A DNA stretch of 64,000 nucleotides. Origin: a bacterium (GTDB lineage: Bacteria; Patescibacteriota; Patescibacteriia; UBA10025). This document shows, one piece after another, positions 45,039 to 59,376 of the stretch. The stretch covers positions 659,710 to 723,709 of the forward strand of contig JAKAGM010000001.1 in the NCBI GenBank assembly GCA_021815445.1, read 5' to 3'. The notes below the pieces were generated by a model. That model saw nothing but the letters and a program-made list of their open reading frames with translations. It ran no database searches and was not told where the DNA came from. Both the position numbers and the translations under genes were made by a program. The number at the start of each line of letters is the position of its first letter. The first letter of the stretch is position 1.

Positions 45039-45126
45039 TGGTGGACCTAGGCGGAATCGTCAGGTCACCCGACCGGACGCCCCGTCGGACCTGTCCCGTC
45101 GAATGACGGGATGACGGGGCGAACTC
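45039..45126 (-). pseudogene. tRNA-Ala 3' fragment with the T-loop interrupted by a GC-rich insert (45060-45121)
   Basis: Minus strand gagttcg[insert]attccgcctaggtccACCA, compared with the intact gagttcgattctccctaggtcca. Confidence 0.65.
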
Positions 45127-55322: not shown

Positions 55323-56141
55323 CTATTGACGGCGTACGCTGTACGGCGTACGCACGCAAGTATCAAGTTTGCGATGCACATATGACACCATCGTGAGAAG
55401 ATCAATCGCATCCCTTTCCTCAAGCTTCCAGACTATTTTTGGCGCATGTGCGTGGGGATTTCGGAAGGCTCCAAAAATGCCTTTGAGTAGGTTTACGAAG
55501 CCTTTCTGTTCCGACTGCTCACTTTCCAATTCAAGCCTGTTTAGAGCGAGAAGGGGCTGATTTATCGAGAACGCCTCATCGAACAATGTTGCCCCGTCGG
55601 TACTCAGGCCAGTCATAGACCTGATCCGTTCCGTGATACCCTTCGCGGCTTCCAAGACAGCATGGAAGTAATTGTTCTGGATCAGTTCTGAGCGGCAGTA
55701 CTTTAGTACTTCCGCATGTACTTCTCTACCTTGCAATTTGTAACGTAGGGATTTGGCTTTTTCTTCGGCTTCCTCCAGCGTGGCCGCCTTGGGTATTTGG
55801 CTAAATCGGCCATGCTTACCGAGCGACAGTCCGTAAAACGATAACACTTTGTTGAGATCGGATCGCGACGCTTCGAAAAATTCAGGATTTCCCACAAAGC
55901 GAACGGGATCCATGACAACCATAATGAACCGGCAGACTGCATTCGCGCAATGGTCTGAAAGCTGCTGCGCAACAAGCGTGGATCGTATTCTTCTCCACTT
56001 GGTGCTAGATTCAGCCTCTTGCTCCACAATCTTGCACTGAGTCAACAAGGGTCCAATCTCGGCGCCGGTCACAGCCTCGCCGAGGACTCTAGCGATCTGC
56101 TCAATAGCGGATGTGGGAAAGGATGGTATCGTCGACCCCAT
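55323..56141 (-). CDS. TIGR02391 (Ymh-like) family protein
   Basis: TKWRRI, NYFHAVLEAAK, DGATL, SEQKGF, FRNPHAH. Confidence 0.85.
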   Translation of the reverse strand: MGSTIPSFPTSAIEQIARVLGEAVTGAEIGPLLTQCKIVEQEAESSTKWRRIRSTLVAQQLSDHCANAVCRFIMVVMDPVRFVGNPEFFEASRSDLNKVLSFYGLSLGKHGRFSQIPKAATLEEAEEKAKSLRYKLQGREVHAEVLKYCRSELIQNNYFHAVLEAAKGITERIRSMTGLSTDGATLFDEAFSINQPLLALNRLELESEQSEQKGFVNLLKGIFGAFRNPHAHAPKIVWKLEERDAIDLLTMVSYVHRKLDTCVRTPYSVRRQ

Positions 56142-56193
56142 GATGTTTTTGCGAAAGAGAAATGGCGAAGTAGTCAATACTCTTCCTGCCCCA

Positions 56194-56265
56194 TGGGTCG
56201 TGGAGGACTCGAACCTCCAACCTTAGGCTTAAGAGGCCTCTGCTCTACCATTGAGCTAACGACCC
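56194..56265 (-). tRNA. tRNA-Lys(CTT)
   Basis: gggtcgt/acgaccc acceptor stem, ctCTTaa loop, ggagg-ttcgagt-cctcc. Confidence 0.93.
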
Positions 56266-56304
56266 ATGGGGCAGGAAGAAATATCACCGACTCAGAGACT
56301 GTAA

Positions 56305-56562
56305 TTAATTAGGATTGTTGCCTTGAATGATTTTCTTAATACTATTATGTTTCTTGAGTGATTTCAAGTACCGCTCTCGCAAGTAAGCTTGCTGTATTGT
56401 ATCAAATTCTTCGATATGAGCTAGCCTCCATGGACGACGCGATTTTGTTGAGAGAGAGTAACCTGCCTGGTGTTCTCGAAAACGCCGCTTCGGGTTGTTT
56501 GAAACACCAATATAATAGGAACCATCATTCTGGCTCTCCAAAACGTACAAATAATGTTTCAT
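56305..56562 (-). CDS. Small GIY-YIG nuclease (85 aa)
   Basis: YLYVL...YYIGVS...RRFREHQ...TKSRRPW...AYLRERYLKS. Start reassigned to MKHYLY. Confidence 0.92.
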   Translation of the reverse strand: MKHYLYVLESQNDGSYYIGVSNNPKRRFREHQAGYSLSTKSRRPWRLAHIEEFDTIQQAYLRERYLKSLKKHNSIKKIIQGNNPN

Positions 56563-56564
56563 AT

Positions 56565-56694
56565 CAACCTTGGGTCCCGGCCCCGCTTCCGGCGGGGCCG
56601 AGGATCCTCGATGCCGGAACGGCATCGGGACTTAAGAGGCCCCTGCTCTACCATTGAGCTAACGACCCATGGCACAGGAAGAAATATCACCGAC
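56565..56694 (-). pseudogene. Duplicated tRNA-Lys leader and 5' half, interrupted by a 56-nt hairpin insert (56575-56630)
   Basis: 56631-56694 matches 56228-56291 at 61/64; 56565-56574 matches 56218-56227 at 9/10. Confidence 0.88.
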
Positions 56695-56767
56695 CGGCAC
56701 ATAGCAACGAAATGGCTCGTGTAGAATGATTGTTGTATAAAAAAACTTCTTCGTCAAGGAATGACTA

Positions 56768-56865
56768 CTTGCGCCCGGAGGGAGTCGAGTCCTGGGCAGC
56801 GCCAGATGCTTCGCTTGCTCGCATCTGTCGACGCTCACTTCGTTTCGCTTCTGCCCTTCGACTCC
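56768..56865 (-). repeat. Duplicated tRNA-Arg 3' end joined to a branched hairpin
   Basis: 56768-56788 is identical to 56921-56941 (21 nt); stems ggagtcga/tcgactcc, gggcag/ctgccc and cagatgc/gcatctg. Confidence 0.8.
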
Positions 56866-56922
56866 TCGGCTATTTGGAAAGAGAAACCTTTAAGAAACAG
56901 TAAAGTAGCTATGAGCAATTCT

Positions 56923-56995
56923 TGCGCCCGGAGGGAGTCGAACCCCCAACCCCATGGTCCGAAGCCATGTACTCTATCCATTGAGCTACGGGCGC
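56923..56995 (-). tRNA. tRNA-Arg(TCG)
   Basis: gcgcccg/cgggcgc acceptor stem; catgg-ctTCGga-ccatg. Confidence 0.92.
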
Positions 56996-57177
56996 ATAAC
57001 TGAAACTGCCGCCATAGTGTAACAATCATCGTACCAAATTTCAAGCTTTAATCTGCTAGAATAATCTTCCAGTCAAACTTTGCGGAACATCACCCCTGCC
57101 TTATCCACATGCTTCGTTATCGCTAAGCTTTGTGGTATACTTTCACCTGTTATTATTTTTTTCACATTGAGAACTCT

Positions 57178-58200
57178 ATGCCAAAAGTTACGAAAAAATC
57201 CTTGCTTCGGGAAACCATTGAACACATTAACATAAAGAAACTCAACGCCAAGCCGTTGATAAGTGCGTATAGCAAAATGTCATTTTCCGCACGCGACCTG
57301 GCGCGGGCGACGGAGATTTACAACATGATGCTTGCCGACAAGTCAGCTTCGGTTTGGCTCACCCTGGCCGGCTCCACCAGTGCCGCCGGCTGTATGCAGG
57401 TCTATGTGGACATGGTAAAAAACAACATGATTGACGCCATTGTCGCTACCGGCGCCTCTATCGTCGATATGGACTTTTTTGAGGCGCTCGGCTTTAAGCA
57501 CTATCGCGGCACGCCATTTATCGACGACGGCCTTTTGCGCTCGCTCTACATTGACCGCATTTACGACACGTTTATTAATGAGGAGGACTTGCAGGTTTGC
57601 GACCAGACTATCGCAAAAATCGCCGACTCGCTTGAGCCGCGGCCGTACTCGTCGCGGGAATTCATCTGGGAAATGGGTAGGTACCTTGCCAAACATTCTA
57701 AGAAAAAAGATTCCCTGGTCCAGGCGTGTTATGAGCATAACGTCCCGATTTTCTGTCCGGCCTTCTCCGATTCTTCGGCAGGATTCGGTATCGTGTACCA
57801 CCAATGGCATCACCGCGATAGCCACGTGTCGATTGATTCAGCTAAGGACTTCCTCGAGCTGACCATGGTCAAGATGAAAAGCAAACAAACCGGCCTGCTG
57901 ATGATCGGCGGCGGCGTGCCAAAAAACTTCGCCCAGGACACCGTAGTCTGCGCGGAAATCCTCGGCAAAGAAGCTCCGGTGCACAAGTATGCTGTGCAAA
58001 TTACTGTTGCTGATGTCCGAGACGGCGCCTGCTCGTCTTCAACACTGAAAGAAGCCAGCTCCTGGGGCAAAGTCAGTACTGTCCATGAGCAGATGGTGTT
58101 CGCCGAGGCGACAATGGCGCTGCCGCTGCTGGCGGCTGACGCCTACCAAACAGGCCACTGGAAAACCAGGAAAAAGCACAACCTGGCAAAGATTTTTTAA
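57178..58200 (+). CDS. Deoxyhypusine synthase-like protein (probable homospermidine synthase)
   Basis: PIFCPAFSDS, IGGGVPKNF, DGACSSSTLKEASSWGKV. Start reassigned to MPKVTK. Confidence 0.9.
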   Translation: MPKVTKKSLLRETIEHINIKKLNAKPLISAYSKMSFSARDLARATEIYNMMLADKSASVWLTLAGSTSAAGCMQVYVDMVKNNMIDAIVATGASIVDMDFFEALGFKHYRGTPFIDDGLLRSLYIDRIYDTFINEEDLQVCDQTIAKIADSLEPRPYSSREFIWEMGRYLAKHSKKKDSLVQACYEHNVPIFCPAFSDSSAGFGIVYHQWHHRDSHVSIDSAKDFLELTMVKMKSKQTGLLMIGGGVPKNFAQDTVVCAEILGKEAPVHKYAVQITVADVRDGACSSSTLKEASSWGKVSTVHEQMVFAEATMALPLLAADAYQTGHWKTRKKHNLAKIF

Positions 58201-58326: not shown

Positions 58327-59376
58327 CTAAAGCGTTTGGGGAGTCGACATGTACATACGCGCCGTCTCCTTCTCGATGAGTCCCTGATCGAATAATCGTT
58401 TAATGTCCTGATCCATGGTGACCATCCCCTCTTCTCCGGACGTCTGAATGGTGGTCTTGATCTGCGCTACCTTGTTTTCACGGATCAAGTTCGCGATTGC
58501 CGGTGTATTAATAAGAATTTCACGCGTCGCGATACGCCCTCCGCCTTTGCGAGGCAGCAGTTGCTGGGAAATAATGCCTTTTAAGAACATGGAAAGCTGG
58601 AGACGTACCTGTGATTGCTGGTAGGGAGGAAAAACGTCAATGATACGGTCGACAGTCTGTCCCGCATTGAACGTATGTAAAGTGGCAAGCACCAAATGGC
58701 CTGTTTCTGCGAGCGTTATTGTCGCCGCGATAGTCTCGAGATCGCGCATCTCACCGACGAGAATGACATTGGGATCCTGGCGCAAGACGTGTTTCAAGGC
58801 CTGGGCAAATGAGAGCATGTCGGTACCAAGCTGTCGCTGTTTGATAATGGCTTTGATGCTCGGATCGTTTTCGTAGATAAATTCAATGGGATCCTCAAGC
58901 GTGATGATGTGCACCGCACGTTCATGGGCTATCATGTTGATCATTGCGGCAAGAGACGTCGATTTGCCGCATCCTGTCGGACCGGTGACGAGCACTAACC
59001 CTTGCTTGAGACGCAAGAGATCATACACGATATTCGGCATCATCAGTTCTTCCAGCGTCGGGATAGTCTGTGAAATAATACGCGCGACAAGACCGGGGTG
59101 GTTGCGTTCCCAGTGGCAGTTGATGCGAAACCGGGACAGCCCGTTGATTTCGTGCGAAATATCAAGCTCGCGTTCGTTGAGATATATGGCTTTTTGGCGC
59201 TCGCTCATGAGCGAAAAGATCATCTCTGCCGCCTCTTTATCGCTTAGCTCGGGCAGCTTTTCATACTCGGTAAGGACCCCGTCAATACGAAAAATAGGCC
59301 TGCGTCCGACGACAAGGTGGATGTCCGAAGCGCCCCGGCCTACAGCTTCCTTAAAAATTGCGTCTATTTTTGTCAT
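58327..59376 (-). CDS. pilT: Type IV pilus retraction ATPase
   Basis: ASDIHL, GPTGCGKST, EDPIE, LRQDPNVILVGEMRD, ETGHLVLATLH, AIANLIRE. Confidence 0.95.
   Translation of the reverse strand: MTKIDAIFKEAVGRGASDIHLVVGRRPIFRIDGVLTEYEKLPELSDKEAAEMIFSLMSERQKAIYLNERELDISHEINGLSRFRINCHWERNHPGLVARIISQTIPTLEELMMPNIVYDLLRLKQGLVLVTGPTGCGKSTSLAAMINMIAHERAVHIITLEDPIEFIYENDPSIKAIIKQRQLGTDMLSFAQALKHVLRQDPNVILVGEMRDLETIAATITLAETGHLVLATLHTFNAGQTVDRIIDVFPPYQQSQVRLQLSMFLKGIISQQLLPRKGGGRIATREILINTPAIANLIRENKVAQIKTTIQTSGEEGMVTMDQDIKRLFDQGLIEKETARMYMSTPQTL

Follow-up and report, generated by a model that had tools for sequence, protein, structure and literature searches.

At a lysine tRNA locus on the minus strand, we found a partial tRNA copy split by a hairpin, followed by a gene for an 85-residue GIY-YIG protein and then by an intact copy of the tRNA gene. 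Coordinates refer to the window, the whole 64,000-nucleotide stretch of DNA that was analysed. An earlier note on this DNA had described a tRNA fragment running to ...aaggttg, 2 nt, the 85-residue GIY-YIG gene, a leader and a complete tRNA-Lys(CTT), and the sequence bears out this layout. In minus-strand order, the features are as follows:

56729..56757, minus strand: promoter-like site (TTGACG, 17 nt, AACAAT) from a consensus scan, about 60 nt before the tRNA fragment and not part of the repeat
56631..56694, minus strand: upstream repeat copy, a 26-nt leader plus tRNA-Lys nucleotides 1-38
56575..56630, minus strand: 56-nt GC-rich double hairpin (DNA fold), between the fragment's tRNA positions 39 and 40
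56565..56574, minus strand: last 10 nt of the tRNA fragment, positions 40-49, cccaaggttg
56305..56562, minus strand: intact gene for the 85-residue single-domain GIY-YIG protein (Pfam PF01541)
56292..56304, minus strand: 13-nt spacer from the stop codon to the downstream repeat copy
56228..56291, minus strand: downstream repeat copy, comprising 26 nt of leader and nucleotides 1-38 of the intact tRNA
56194..56265 (Rfam, 73.1 bits) or 56193-56266 (ARAGORN), minus strand: intact tRNA-Lys(CTT), no encoded CCA
56181..56279, minus strand: perfect 21-bp leader-trailer helix (arms 56181-56201 and 56259-56279), an inverted repeat with 100% complementarity

The direct repeat (56228-56291 and 56631-56694) spans 64 nt, of which 61 match (95%), and the comparison confirmed both this figure and the 26 nt of leader claimed for it. 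The copies start 403 nt apart, a period that falls to 347 nt without the hairpin. The size of about 350 bp proposed earlier for the unit needs correction; its 56-nt double hairpin had been overlooked. Two of the three differences between the copies are in the leader (56270-56271). The third is at tRNA position 28, which is A in the intact copy and G in the fragment; at position 42, its partner, the intact copy has T and the fragment C. The compensatory A-T versus G-C pair reported for the anticodon stem is real, and the fragment's version is the allele found in the tRNA-Lys(CTT) genes of two relatives, G001 and G002. The 38 nt of the upstream copy comprise the 5' strand of the acceptor stem, the D arm, the 5' strand of the anticodon stem and the loop with CTT and G39; the fragment at this locus has neither a T arm nor a 3' acceptor strand. 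It scores 29.0 bits against the Rfam tRNA model over 56601-56668 and receives no ARAGORN call. At the Rfam threshold, it could be miscalled in annotation as a second tRNA-Lys. The upstream copy descends from another functional allele but is itself dead, so 'two functional alleles' describes the origin of the fragment and overstates its present condition.

The double hairpin begins TCCCGATG, finishes CCGGGA and belongs to a family of hairpins with the signature GTCCCGAYG. It interrupts the upstream tRNA copy after nucleotide 38, in the 3' strand of the anticodon stem, and excising it from the fragment gives back the allele sequence of G001 and G002. As single-stranded DNA it folds with -25.5 kcal/mol (z -5.8), and none of 200 shuffles folds as well. 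It ends 12 nt before the start codon and, at this locus, is present on one side of the ORF only. Only 'at' separates the 'aaggttg' of the fragment from the ATG, and AAGG in these last 10 nt, 7 nt before the ATG, could be a ribosome-binding site. The window's hairpin is bulged and was missed by a lax scan for TCCCG...CGGGA hairpins, from which no count was taken. The promoter-like site is likely the ancestral tRNA-Lys promoter; before the empty-site tRNA-Lys of G001, a promoter-like stretch found by eye lies at a similar distance from its tRNA.

No ORF encodes an integrase or recombinase within about 6 kb upstream or downstream, where the neighbours are housekeeping genes and a single defence-like gene. 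This agrees with the description of the unit as integrase-free. The defence-like gene, PD-Lambda-3_B, lies just downstream of the tRNA. Elsewhere in the window, a PilT-type ATPase is encoded at 58327-59376.

The protein matches the Pfam GIY-YIG domain (PF01541) over residues 2-73 of 85 with 63.9 bits (cut-off 22.6; E 1.7e-17), and Pfam finds no second domain in it. Across 28 aligned homologs, Y6, Y17, G19, H31 and E63 are invariant and R27 is nearly so (at least 90%). The nearest solved structures are the UPF0213 proteins 1ywl (EF2693; E 1.1e-8) and 1zg2 (BH0048; E 2.8e-7), each matched over nearly the whole protein. An NCBIfam search with the nuclease gave no match. Phage endonuclease families in PHROGs matched weakly (best E 8e-7), as did 5 phage and 19 plasmid records, at 39% identity or less. 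The nuclease is under purifying selection: in all seven close pairs dN was 0.08-0.21, with synonymous sites saturated or dS at 0.95 (dN/dS 0.13). In-frame stops were present in nine among the roughly 150 homolog matches listed, with 85 further matches beyond these.

There is no sign of misassembly. Logan contigs reproduce the duplication with 0 differences, and they take in all three positions that distinguish the repeat copies. In three of the four runs, which come from one study, possibly on the source sample itself, so that their support is independent of the assembler and not of the sample, the contigs covered 56236-57200 and 55800-56259 with 0 differences and at equal depth. Run X4 gave the upstream part as two overlapping zero-difference pieces (56236-56967 and 56938-57200). 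The contig joints seen at the locus stem either from low-depth pieces or from the paralogous tRNA-Lys(TTT) locus, and no empty-site variant of this population was found among the contigs covering the locus.

The genome, at 1.26 Mb, encodes ten small GIY-YIG paralogs, which share about 24-39% identity with the protein of the window. Five of the ten lie 23-45 nt upstream of an intact tRNA gene on the same strand (Lys-CTT, Ser-GGA, Leu-CAA, Arg-CCG and Ser-CGA), and each of these five has a hairpin-split 5' fragment of the same tRNA upstream. With 45 tRNAs in 1.26 Mb, a nuclease gene would adjoin a tRNA by chance in about 0.1% of cases. The fragment matches the intact gene at 100% over 36-37 nt at three loci and at 97% over 39 nt at the Lys-CTT locus. 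The cassette order, from promoter-like site to intact tRNA, recurs at four other tRNAs here, and it is found in many other genomes. Of the five paralogs without an adjoining tRNA, one is in the 23S rRNA, one is 121 nt behind the tmRNA and three have no RNA gene in the vicinity. At the tRNA-Lys(TTT) locus there is an ORF-less fragment with a homologous double hairpin, which has the same termini and the same tRNA position, and also a Lys(CTT)-type fragment whose 36 nt match the gene 145 kb away with 100% identity. We counted 17 tRNA-fragment clusters outside annotated tRNAs, in a search that missed the fragment at the Ser-GGA locus (too diverged); four are within 100 nt of a GIY-YIG ORF and a fifth, a tRNA-Arg 3' fragment, is 207 nt from one.

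The leader-trailer helix prolongs the acceptor stem of the intact tRNA and gives a fold of -33.9 kcal/mol (z -9.2). We considered such helices as a hallmark of cassette-borne tRNAs and rejected this, as they are not specific to nuclease-linked tRNAs. Extended helices were seen in 5/47 tRNAs directly downstream of a nuclease gene, 1/45 directly upstream and 3/59 elsewhere; in this genome, 7 of 45 tRNAs have an extension of at least 8 bp.

Homologs are present in 54 of the 61 genomes searched (60 relatives and this genome, G000). Among relatives, 27 of the 29 best homolog loci have a same-strand tRNA within 160 nt, the other two having no adjoining tRNA, and a 5' tRNA fragment lies upstream of the ORF in 13 of the 19 loci with a tRNA downstream. 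In a broad set, biased to the window's clade because the query was an alignment of five sequences from that clade, 63 of 80 loci have a same-strand tRNA or tmRNA within 200 nt and 17 have no adjoining tRNA. This set spans CPR, Gammaproteobacteria, Bacteroidota, Verrucomicrobiota, Planctomycetota and others. The two sets overlap (identical protein rows L011/L085 and L012/L087; zero branch lengths for L014/L084). The tRNA association that the earlier note had proposed to check in homologs is strong, in this genome, in its relatives and across phyla.

Relatives also show empty sites, for which the earlier note had proposed to look. The orthologous tRNA-Arg(TCG)-tRNA-Lys(CTT) locus is filled in G000, empty in G001 and G002, and occupied by an ORF-less scar in G003; these three are related genera, not strains. 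By local alignment, the scar is made up of the fragment, a shorter hairpin whose termini and tRNA position are the same as here, and the same 10 nt; it has no ORF. The spacer behind the ORF resembles G003 over too short a stretch to be considered. G022 has a tandem duplication of a 372-nt cassette unit, as expected of repeat-flanked modules. A 2.7-kb inverted duplication in G002 is uninformative. The earlier note had named three outcomes that would count against it; as it turned out, homologs are linked to tRNAs, empty sites exist and the duplication shows no sign of misassembly.

Homologs in many phyla have the GTCCCGAYG signature beside them. The tree places the window's protein in a clade of 15 rows (SH-aLRT 95), and a GTCCCGAYG hairpin lies within 200 nt in 11 of the other 14 rows. 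The hairpin is on either side of the ORF, depending on the locus, and a single rule for the side of the cut therefore fails. In seven loci examined, tRNA homology stops 6-10 nt past the hairpin. At locus L126, and at some other homolog loci, the hairpin replaces the anticodon arm of an otherwise complete tRNA-like copy. The double hairpin appears to be the second defining part of the element. On the protein tree, tRNA isotype changes 45 times among 94 labelled rows versus 71.8 in shuffles (minimum 66), side 18 times versus 31.5 (minimum 25) and hairpin type 18 times versus 26.3 (minimum 22), comparisons that overstate clustering because relatives share labels by descent.

Three known systems resemble this cassette in part. 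SegB of phages T4 and T6 is a free-standing GIY-YIG homing endonuclease in a phage tRNA gene cluster (PMC2330249, PMC13096335). It cuts within tRNA genes and brings about segmental amplification that depends on recombination (PMC13096335). Like SegB, the window's gene encodes a GIY-YIG domain and lies among tRNA genes, in a family that is widely tRNA-associated, and breaks would similarly lead through homologous recombination to the duplication or amplification of segments containing nuclease gene and tRNA. SegB is longer, is a phage protein and cuts double-stranded DNA at a loose motif; our protein, by contrast, is a single domain of 85 residues in a cellular genome, and its cassette combines a conserved double hairpin with a partial tRNA copy that a hairpin has split. 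The separate DNA-binding domain of SegB and I-TevI-type homing endonucleases is absent here according to Pfam. As with those enzymes, the gene is present or absent at a conserved target among relatives, in our case genera rather than strains.

The Ssn nucleases offer a closer parallel in size. SsnA of Neisseria meningitidis (cd10448) has 94 residues, its mutated catalytic residues are Y6, Y17 and E64, and Ssn proteins bind a single-stranded DNA hairpin and cut a few nucleotides away (PMC11893778). The idea of a hairpin-nuclease-hairpin element that was later domesticated is raised there, and the word 'tRNA' is absent from the main text (PMC11893778). Compared by features rather than by cd10448 placement, both are single-domain GIY-YIG proteins of about 90 residues, ours having 85 with Y6, Y17 and E63 invariant. 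Ssn genes are flanked by hairpin-forming repeats of 20-50 nt, where we find a 56-nt double hairpin on one side, and the hairpin here (G, then TCCCG...CGGGA, then TC) is built as the core of the NTS repeats described for Ssn. In contrast to the Ssn case, our hairpins are few and lie within dead tRNA copies, and the published Ssn SRM pattern, which matched all NTS consensus variants in a control, is not enriched: it matches 7 times in the genome and 6-11 times in ten shuffled versions, with no match at any of the ten nuclease loci.

In fungal mitochondria, endonuclease genes of a comparable kind go by the term 'mobile ORF elements'. Free-standing GIY-YIG or LAGLIDADG genes there adjoin partial duplications of host genes, with one complete and one partial gene copy, the working copy being kept while the displaced piece decays; the duplicated pieces are C-terminal parts of protein genes (atp6, cob) in organelles (PMC6279837). 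In our case, by contrast, the 5' part of a bacterial chromosomal tRNA gene is duplicated and a hairpin marks the dead copy. The UPF0213 proteins are the best sequence matches among solved structures and belong to the same size class. We know of no tRNA-fragment or hairpin context for them, and our literature search found no paper on UPF0213/YhbQ GIY-YIG proteins. The same search, which covered literature outside subscription journals, found no description of tRNA-embedded small GIY-YIG cassettes. This widespread family of tRNA-resident mini-cassettes is apparently undescribed so far.

Based on these findings, we lean, if only slightly, towards a model in which the tRNA-resident mini-cassette, a GIY-YIG gene with its cognate hairpin, is selfish DNA. 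It would spread by nuclease-stimulated recombination between tRNA genes, using tRNA sequence as homology arms and always leaving one working tRNA. We infer the mobility, the cleavage substrate and the expression of the cassette from its arrangement. The earlier note had proposed homing into tRNA genes by GIY-YIG cleavage and recombination. The intact nuclease and the tRNA link agree with this proposal, but classical double-strand homing is doubtful because a length of 85 residues leaves no room for a DNA-binding domain. A hairpin-guided, possibly single-strand-specific nuclease would be the better model. We propose that the nuclease may recognize its own hairpin, probably extruded in single-stranded DNA as in Ssn, and cut within a few nucleotides. 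The break would be repaired from a cassette-bearing copy, in which the partial tRNA copy and the whole gene on either side act as portable homology arms. The use of tRNA sequence for these arms would account for the cassette's arrival at further tRNA genes and in further lineages, and the partial duplication would follow if only arrangements with one intact tRNA survive. Lying between the old tRNA promoter and the working tRNA, the ORF would share a transcript with an essential gene; that the tRNA promoter drives its expression is plausible. Cassettes would in time decay into ORF-less scars of fragment plus hairpin.

Some of our data fit this selfish model poorly. A naive tRNA gene, as a recipient, has no hairpin to guide the cut. 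Given a nearest homolog at 50-56% identity and paralogs at about 24-39%, nothing here moved recently. Strong purifying selection and few broken copies are also ill-suited to a cycle of invasion and decay, and a domesticated function fits them equally well. A bolder version of the selfish model would make the cassette a phylum-crossing, self-rescuing gene drive of about 350-400 bp. Here the hairpin-guided 85-residue nuclease would break a tRNA copy and be copied in with tRNA sequence, which is conserved universally, as its homology arms, always delivering or preserving a working tRNA, with a hairpin specificity of its own in each nuclease lineage. As a working tRNA is always kept, the host could not lose such a cassette, and its position between a tRNA and the tRNA's promoter would make silencing impossible. 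We put this version forward tentatively and think it rather unlikely. If it is true, these cassettes would be a natural library of tiny programmable cutters of single-stranded DNA.

The nuclease could instead be a domesticated, Ssn-like hairpin-guided enzyme that serves the host, for example by trimming single-stranded DNA, whether incoming or replicating, in the neighbourhood of tRNA loci. Recombination or transformation would be tuned in this way, with the tRNA fragments as by-products of breaks. SsnA modulates transformation through hairpin repeats (PMC11893778). The long-term purifying selection, the ten intact paralogs in a 1.26-Mb genome and the homologs in 54 of 61 genomes all suit such a role, and the PilT-type ATPase in the window fits a competent lifestyle. 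We nevertheless consider a host function improbable, as the orthologous locus is patchy (empty in G001 and G002, a scar in G003), tRNA isotype switches are frequent (45 among 94 labelled rows), and there are tandem copies and nested debris. NTS repeats, moreover, occur in hundreds of copies, whereas the hairpins here are few and only in dead tRNA copies, and the published SRM pattern is not enriched. A further possibility is a function at the RNA level, in which a hairpin-bearing tRNA-like transcript and the nuclease would act on tRNA or other RNA. They might form a toxin, help to process RNA or serve as a decoy that diverts tRNA-cutting defences. Such a role would account for the association with tRNA, tmRNA and rRNA genes, given that paralogs adjoin tRNA and tmRNA and one lies inside the 23S rRNA. 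The fragment plus hairpin can fold in a tRNA-like way and reaches the Rfam tRNA threshold at 29.0 bits, the hairpin at some homolog loci takes the place of the anticodon arm in otherwise complete tRNA-like copies (L126), and tRNA amplification in phage T6 is described as countering a tRNA-cutting defence (PMC13096335). Yet SsnA, the only characterized small single-domain relative, neither binds nor cuts RNA (PMC11893778). The fragments here also lack the T arm and the 3' acceptor strand, and duplications, scars and nested remnants are marks left at the DNA level. We give a role in RNA little credence.

A tRNA gene could also have been duplicated locally and have decayed in the ordinary way, while an unrelated small nuclease gene merely tolerated tRNA-rich intergenic space. 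This explanation can draw on the tRNA fragments that have no nuclease gene nearby (4 of 17 clusters are within 100 nt of one). It strikes us as very improbable in the face of an ordered layout repeated at five loci here and at most homolog loci elsewhere, and of a conserved hairpin signature that accompanies a protein clade across phyla. We attach even less weight to three other origins: an integrase-mediated island that left a remnant in a tRNA att site, a group I intron carrying a homing endonuclease gene, and an artefact of assembly. Integration at tRNA genes is a classic pattern, which favours an island, as does the defence-like PD-Lambda-3_B gene just downstream of the tRNA; against it, no recombinase lies within about 6 kb and the repeat consists of the leader and the 5' 38 nt of the tRNA rather than its 3' end. 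In 55500-57500, no intron family of any kind scored at an E value of 1 or below; a 3' exon is missing from the upstream copy, and the intact tRNA stands apart from it as a complete gene. An artefact is contradicted by contigs from an independent assembler, which give both copies with 0 differences.

If the selfish model is correct, the tRNA genes of many bacterial phyla, above all CPR/Patescibacteria with their tiny genomes, would be hosts to common mini mobile elements that have neither integrase nor transposase. It would explain tRNA halves, nested tRNAs and GC-rich hairpins near tRNA genes in these genomes, features that might otherwise pass for split or permuted tRNA genes. Very small nuclease-hairpin pairs of diverse specificity would then be candidate tools. 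The hairpin-specific Ssn nucleases and the tRNA-linked story of SegB would both be widened to a broader set of elements.

The cassette at tRNA-Lys, in which a GIY-YIG gene and a GC-rich hairpin lie between a partial and an intact copy of the tRNA gene, is laid out as follows.

56757-56729, minus: promoter-like site
56694-56631, minus: 26-nt leader and first 38 nt of tRNA-Lys (upstream repeat copy)
56630-56575, minus: GC-rich double hairpin, 56 nt
56574-56565, minus: further ten tRNA nt, cccaaggttg
minus: two nt before the GIY-YIG gene
56562-56305, minus: GIY-YIG gene, 85 codons
minus: 13-nt spacer between the GIY-YIG gene and the second leader
56265-56194 (tRNA), minus: complete tRNA-Lys(CTT), preceded by the second copy of the 26-nt leader

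The earlier note had described the repeat, the GIY-YIG gene and the complete tRNA-Lys(CTT). Every point of that layout holds and all the parts it listed are present, but the double hairpin was missing from it. The direct repeat is 64 nt long, matches at 61/64 positions and has a start-to-start spacing of 403 nt. As single-stranded DNA, the double hairpin folds at -25.5 kcal/mol (z -5.8 vs shuffles); it starts with G|TCCCGATG and ends with CCGGGA. Its deletion in silico joins ...ctcttaag to cccaaggttg, giving a sequence identical to that of the anticodon arm plus variable loop in the tRNA-Lys(CTT) genes of the relatives G001 and G002. The repeat copies had been taken for two functional alleles. 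The compensatory pair 28:42 (G:C in the fragment, A:T in the intact gene) is real because the hairpin-free fragment equals the G001/G002 sequence, but the fragment is dead: it lacks the T arm and the 3' acceptor strand, scores 29.0 bits with Rfam vs 73.1 for the intact gene, and is not called as a tRNA by ARAGORN. The pair shows that the dead copy descends from a different working allele, not that this copy is functional.

A perfect 21-bp leader-trailer helix surrounds the intact tRNA-Lys (window 56181-56201 / 56259-56279). Acceptor-stem extensions of at least 8 bp occur in 7/45 tRNAs of the source genome (G000), the tRNA-Lys helix of the relative G003 has a wholly different sequence, and the helix showed no tie to the nuclease gene across the tRNAs compared.

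Misassembly, which the earlier note had raised, left no sign at the cassette in Logan contigs of four runs (one study, possibly the source sample; no independent sample). Positions 56236-57200 and 55800-56259 were recovered with zero differences and equal depth, including both repeat copies and the three positions that tell them apart. The sole contig break lies within the intact tRNA-Lys, in sequence common to the tRNA-Lys(TTT) gene.

The same locus takes several forms in relatives, where the order tRNA-Arg(TCG), tRNA-Lys(CTT) is conserved in the family. G002 has neither fragment nor nuclease gene, and its tRNA-Lys lies 22 nt past repeats of the tRNA-Arg tail. G001 has an unrelated ORF between the two tRNAs and no fragment. 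G003 carries a hairpin-riddled fragment upstream of an intact tRNA-Lys and no ORF; a shorter hairpin with the same termini and position as in the window (TCCCGATGCCG...CGGGA) occupies the anticodon arm of this fragment, followed by the same cccaaggttg. The locus thus occurs in empty, filled and decayed states, which is the pattern expected of a mobile element, as is the exchange between paralogous targets seen at the tRNA-Lys(TTT) locus of G000; the comparison is between genera, and any of the states may have come first. The 21-nt tail of tRNA-Arg(TCG) has an exact second copy 153 nt downstream (window 56768-56788, 56921-56941, minus), which closes a unit containing a hairpin. A homolog of this unit in G002 is about 125 nt long, finishes with the same tRNA-Arg tail and is present as two tandem repeats on the way from tRNA-Arg to tRNA-Lys. 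The unit seems to be a conserved element built on the tRNA tail and distinct from the nuclease cassette.

The cassette is one of several in G000. This 1.26-Mb genome encodes 45 tRNAs, and its ten small GIY-YIG paralogs share about 24-39% identity with the window protein. Five of the ten have a same-strand intact tRNA 23-45 nt downstream (Lys-CTT, Ser-GGA, Leu-CAA, Arg-CCG, Ser-CGA). In all five, a 5' fragment of the same tRNA lies upstream; one or two GC hairpins interrupt it, and another 6-10 tRNA nt separate hairpin from ORF; three fragments equal the intact gene (100% over 36-37 nt). At the tRNA-Leu locus the module of ORF and intact tRNA is nested, and the remnant behind the intact gene is the 3' part of a different tRNA-Leu allele with the same hairpin. 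No RNA gene lies near three of the remaining five paralogs. One (L005, G000:C2:46323-46556) starts 121 nt behind the tmRNA 3' end, with GC hairpins between, and one (L006, G000:C1:98426-98626) sits in an insertion in the 23S rRNA gene, between the arms of a 15-nt inverted repeat (cagcaccactttcag / ctgaaagtggtgctg). Outside the window, the tRNA-Lys(TTT) locus (G000:C2:570437-570740) has two upstream 5' fragments and no ORF: one matches the Lys(TTT) type and contains a homolog of the window's double hairpin, and the other is of Lys(CTT) type, identical over 36 nt (100%) to the window's intact gene 145 kb away. At about 45040-45125 (minus) in the window, a tRNA-Ala 3' remnant (GAGTTCG...GATTCCGCCTAGGTCCACCA) lies about 45 nt behind tRNA-Ala(CGC); nested GC hairpins, one of them TCCCGTCATTCGACGGGA, split its T loop.

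The layout and its recurrence are direct observations, as is a patchy distribution. Homologs occur in 54 of the 61 genomes searched (60 relatives and G000). Among the best loci in relatives, 27/29 have a same-strand tRNA at most 160 nt away, and where the tRNA is downstream a 5' fragment precedes the ORF in 13/19. A broad scan of species genomes in many phyla, biased to one clade by its query (an alignment of the window protein's clade), found 80 loci, of which 63 have a tRNA or tmRNA on the same strand at most 200 nt away (27/31 CPR-named, 36/49 others); the two sets share a few genomes. One broad-scan homolog (L128) has a tmRNA 87 nt upstream. At L151 (G022:C52) a 372-nt unit, made of the 5' part of tRNA-Gln, a 20-nt palindrome, 20 more tRNA nt and the nuclease gene, is tandemly duplicated with 100% identity ahead of an intact tRNA-Gln. 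The palindrome recurs at L015, at L026 and at L152 (G043:C2), where it lies in a tRNA-Phe fragment, within the D loop. On L126, a Gammaproteobacteria MAG contig, three tRNA-Lys-like copies carry a single GTCCCGATG hairpin exactly in the anticodon-arm place; two of the three lack nothing else, T arm and acceptor end included, and may be expressed as tRNA-like RNAs.

The hairpin appears to form the element's second defining part. A GTCCCGAYG signature, mostly in a two-fold symmetric double hairpin, stands beside homologs in CPR, Gammaproteobacteria, Bdellovibrionales, Planctomycetota, Bacteroidota and others, inserted at several tRNA positions: in the D stem between G10 and C11, in the anticodon-arm place or, in the window, between positions 39 and 40. 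A separate clade has the 20-nt palindrome instead, identical at four loci. On a tree of 119 proteins, built from a short alignment with many forks unresolved, the window protein belongs to a 15-row clade (SH-aLRT 95). The remaining 14 rows all have the mirror layout of intact tRNA, ORF and hairpin-split 3' remnant, at tRNA-Val (ten), tRNA-Met (three) or tRNA-Ala (one), and 11 of them have the GTCCCGAYG hairpin. The window copy, with tRNA-Lys downstream, is itself a target switch. Isotype, ORF side and hairpin type all cluster on the tree, with fewer changes than in shuffles, a test that relatedness inflates; that hairpin type goes with protein clade is a direct observation.

Label changes on the protein tree: observed; mean of 200 shuffles; shuffle minimum
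tRNA isotype: 45; 71.8; 66
ORF side: 18; 31.5; 25
Hairpin type: 18; 26.3; 22

There are 45 isotype changes among 94 labelled rows; target switching is therefore frequent.

The 85-aa protein matches Pfam GIY-YIG (63.9 bits, residues 2-73). Y6, Y17, G19, H31 and E63 are invariant among 28 homologs and R27 nearly so. The closest solved structures are the UPF0213 proteins 1ywl and 1zg2; PHROGs gave weak endonuclease matches, and NCBIfam and PADLOC gave none. The earlier note's description of the element as integrase-free stands: the ORFs within about 6 kb include neither a recombinase nor a transposase. Neighbour genes include ClpP, RNase Y, YmdB, HU and PilT. Just downstream of tRNA-Lys (55323-56177, minus) is a gene matching the defence protein model PD-Lambda-3_B (E 1.5e-78) and Pfam Hypoth_Ymh, and a full-length deoxyhypusine synthase homolog (57130-58200, plus; Pfam DS, E 3e-95) is encoded in this small bacterial genome.

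We propose that the nuclease recognizes its own hairpin and cuts near it. A copy that holds the cassette would then serve as repair template, flanking tRNA sequence providing the homology on either side, and only products keeping one whole tRNA would survive. The ORF may be read from the tRNA promoter. By analogy with Ssn nucleases and phage SegB, these steps are plausible. The former, single-domain GIY-YIG proteins of 94 aa, bind a hairpin exclusively when the DNA is single-stranded and cut a few nt upstream of it; such hairpins flank the nuclease genes (PMC11893778). SegB cleaves inside tRNA genes, leading to recombination-dependent amplification of a segB and tRNA segment, and is tRNA-associated across phages (PMC13096335). 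The model has weak points: a naive tRNA gene offers no hairpin for recognition, the side of the hairpin relative to the ORF varies among loci, and the published Ssn hairpin pattern (SRM) is not enriched in G000. The data at hand show no movement of the cassette. The protein is under long-term purifying selection, which fits a domesticated role equally well: close pairs have dN 0.08-0.21 with synonymous sites saturated in six of seven, and the seventh has dN/dS 0.13.

By the criteria tested, the cassette qualifies neither as an integrase island nor as a group I intron, and the window protein lacks the DNA-binding domain of SegB-type enzymes. As we read it, the cassette would act as a homing endonuclease gene of the free-standing kind joined to a nuclease-hairpin pair of Ssn type. 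A similar arrangement is known from fungal mitochondria, where endonuclease genes lie next to partial gene duplications (PMC6279837). We found no description in the literature of small GIY-YIG cassettes in partly duplicated tRNA genes; the main text of the Ssn paper does not mention tRNA, and its supplements might list such neighbours (PMC11893778). In sum, the earlier understanding of this feature was largely correct. The feature is real, and the cassette adds a new form to the known GIY-YIG elements of homing type and Ssn type.
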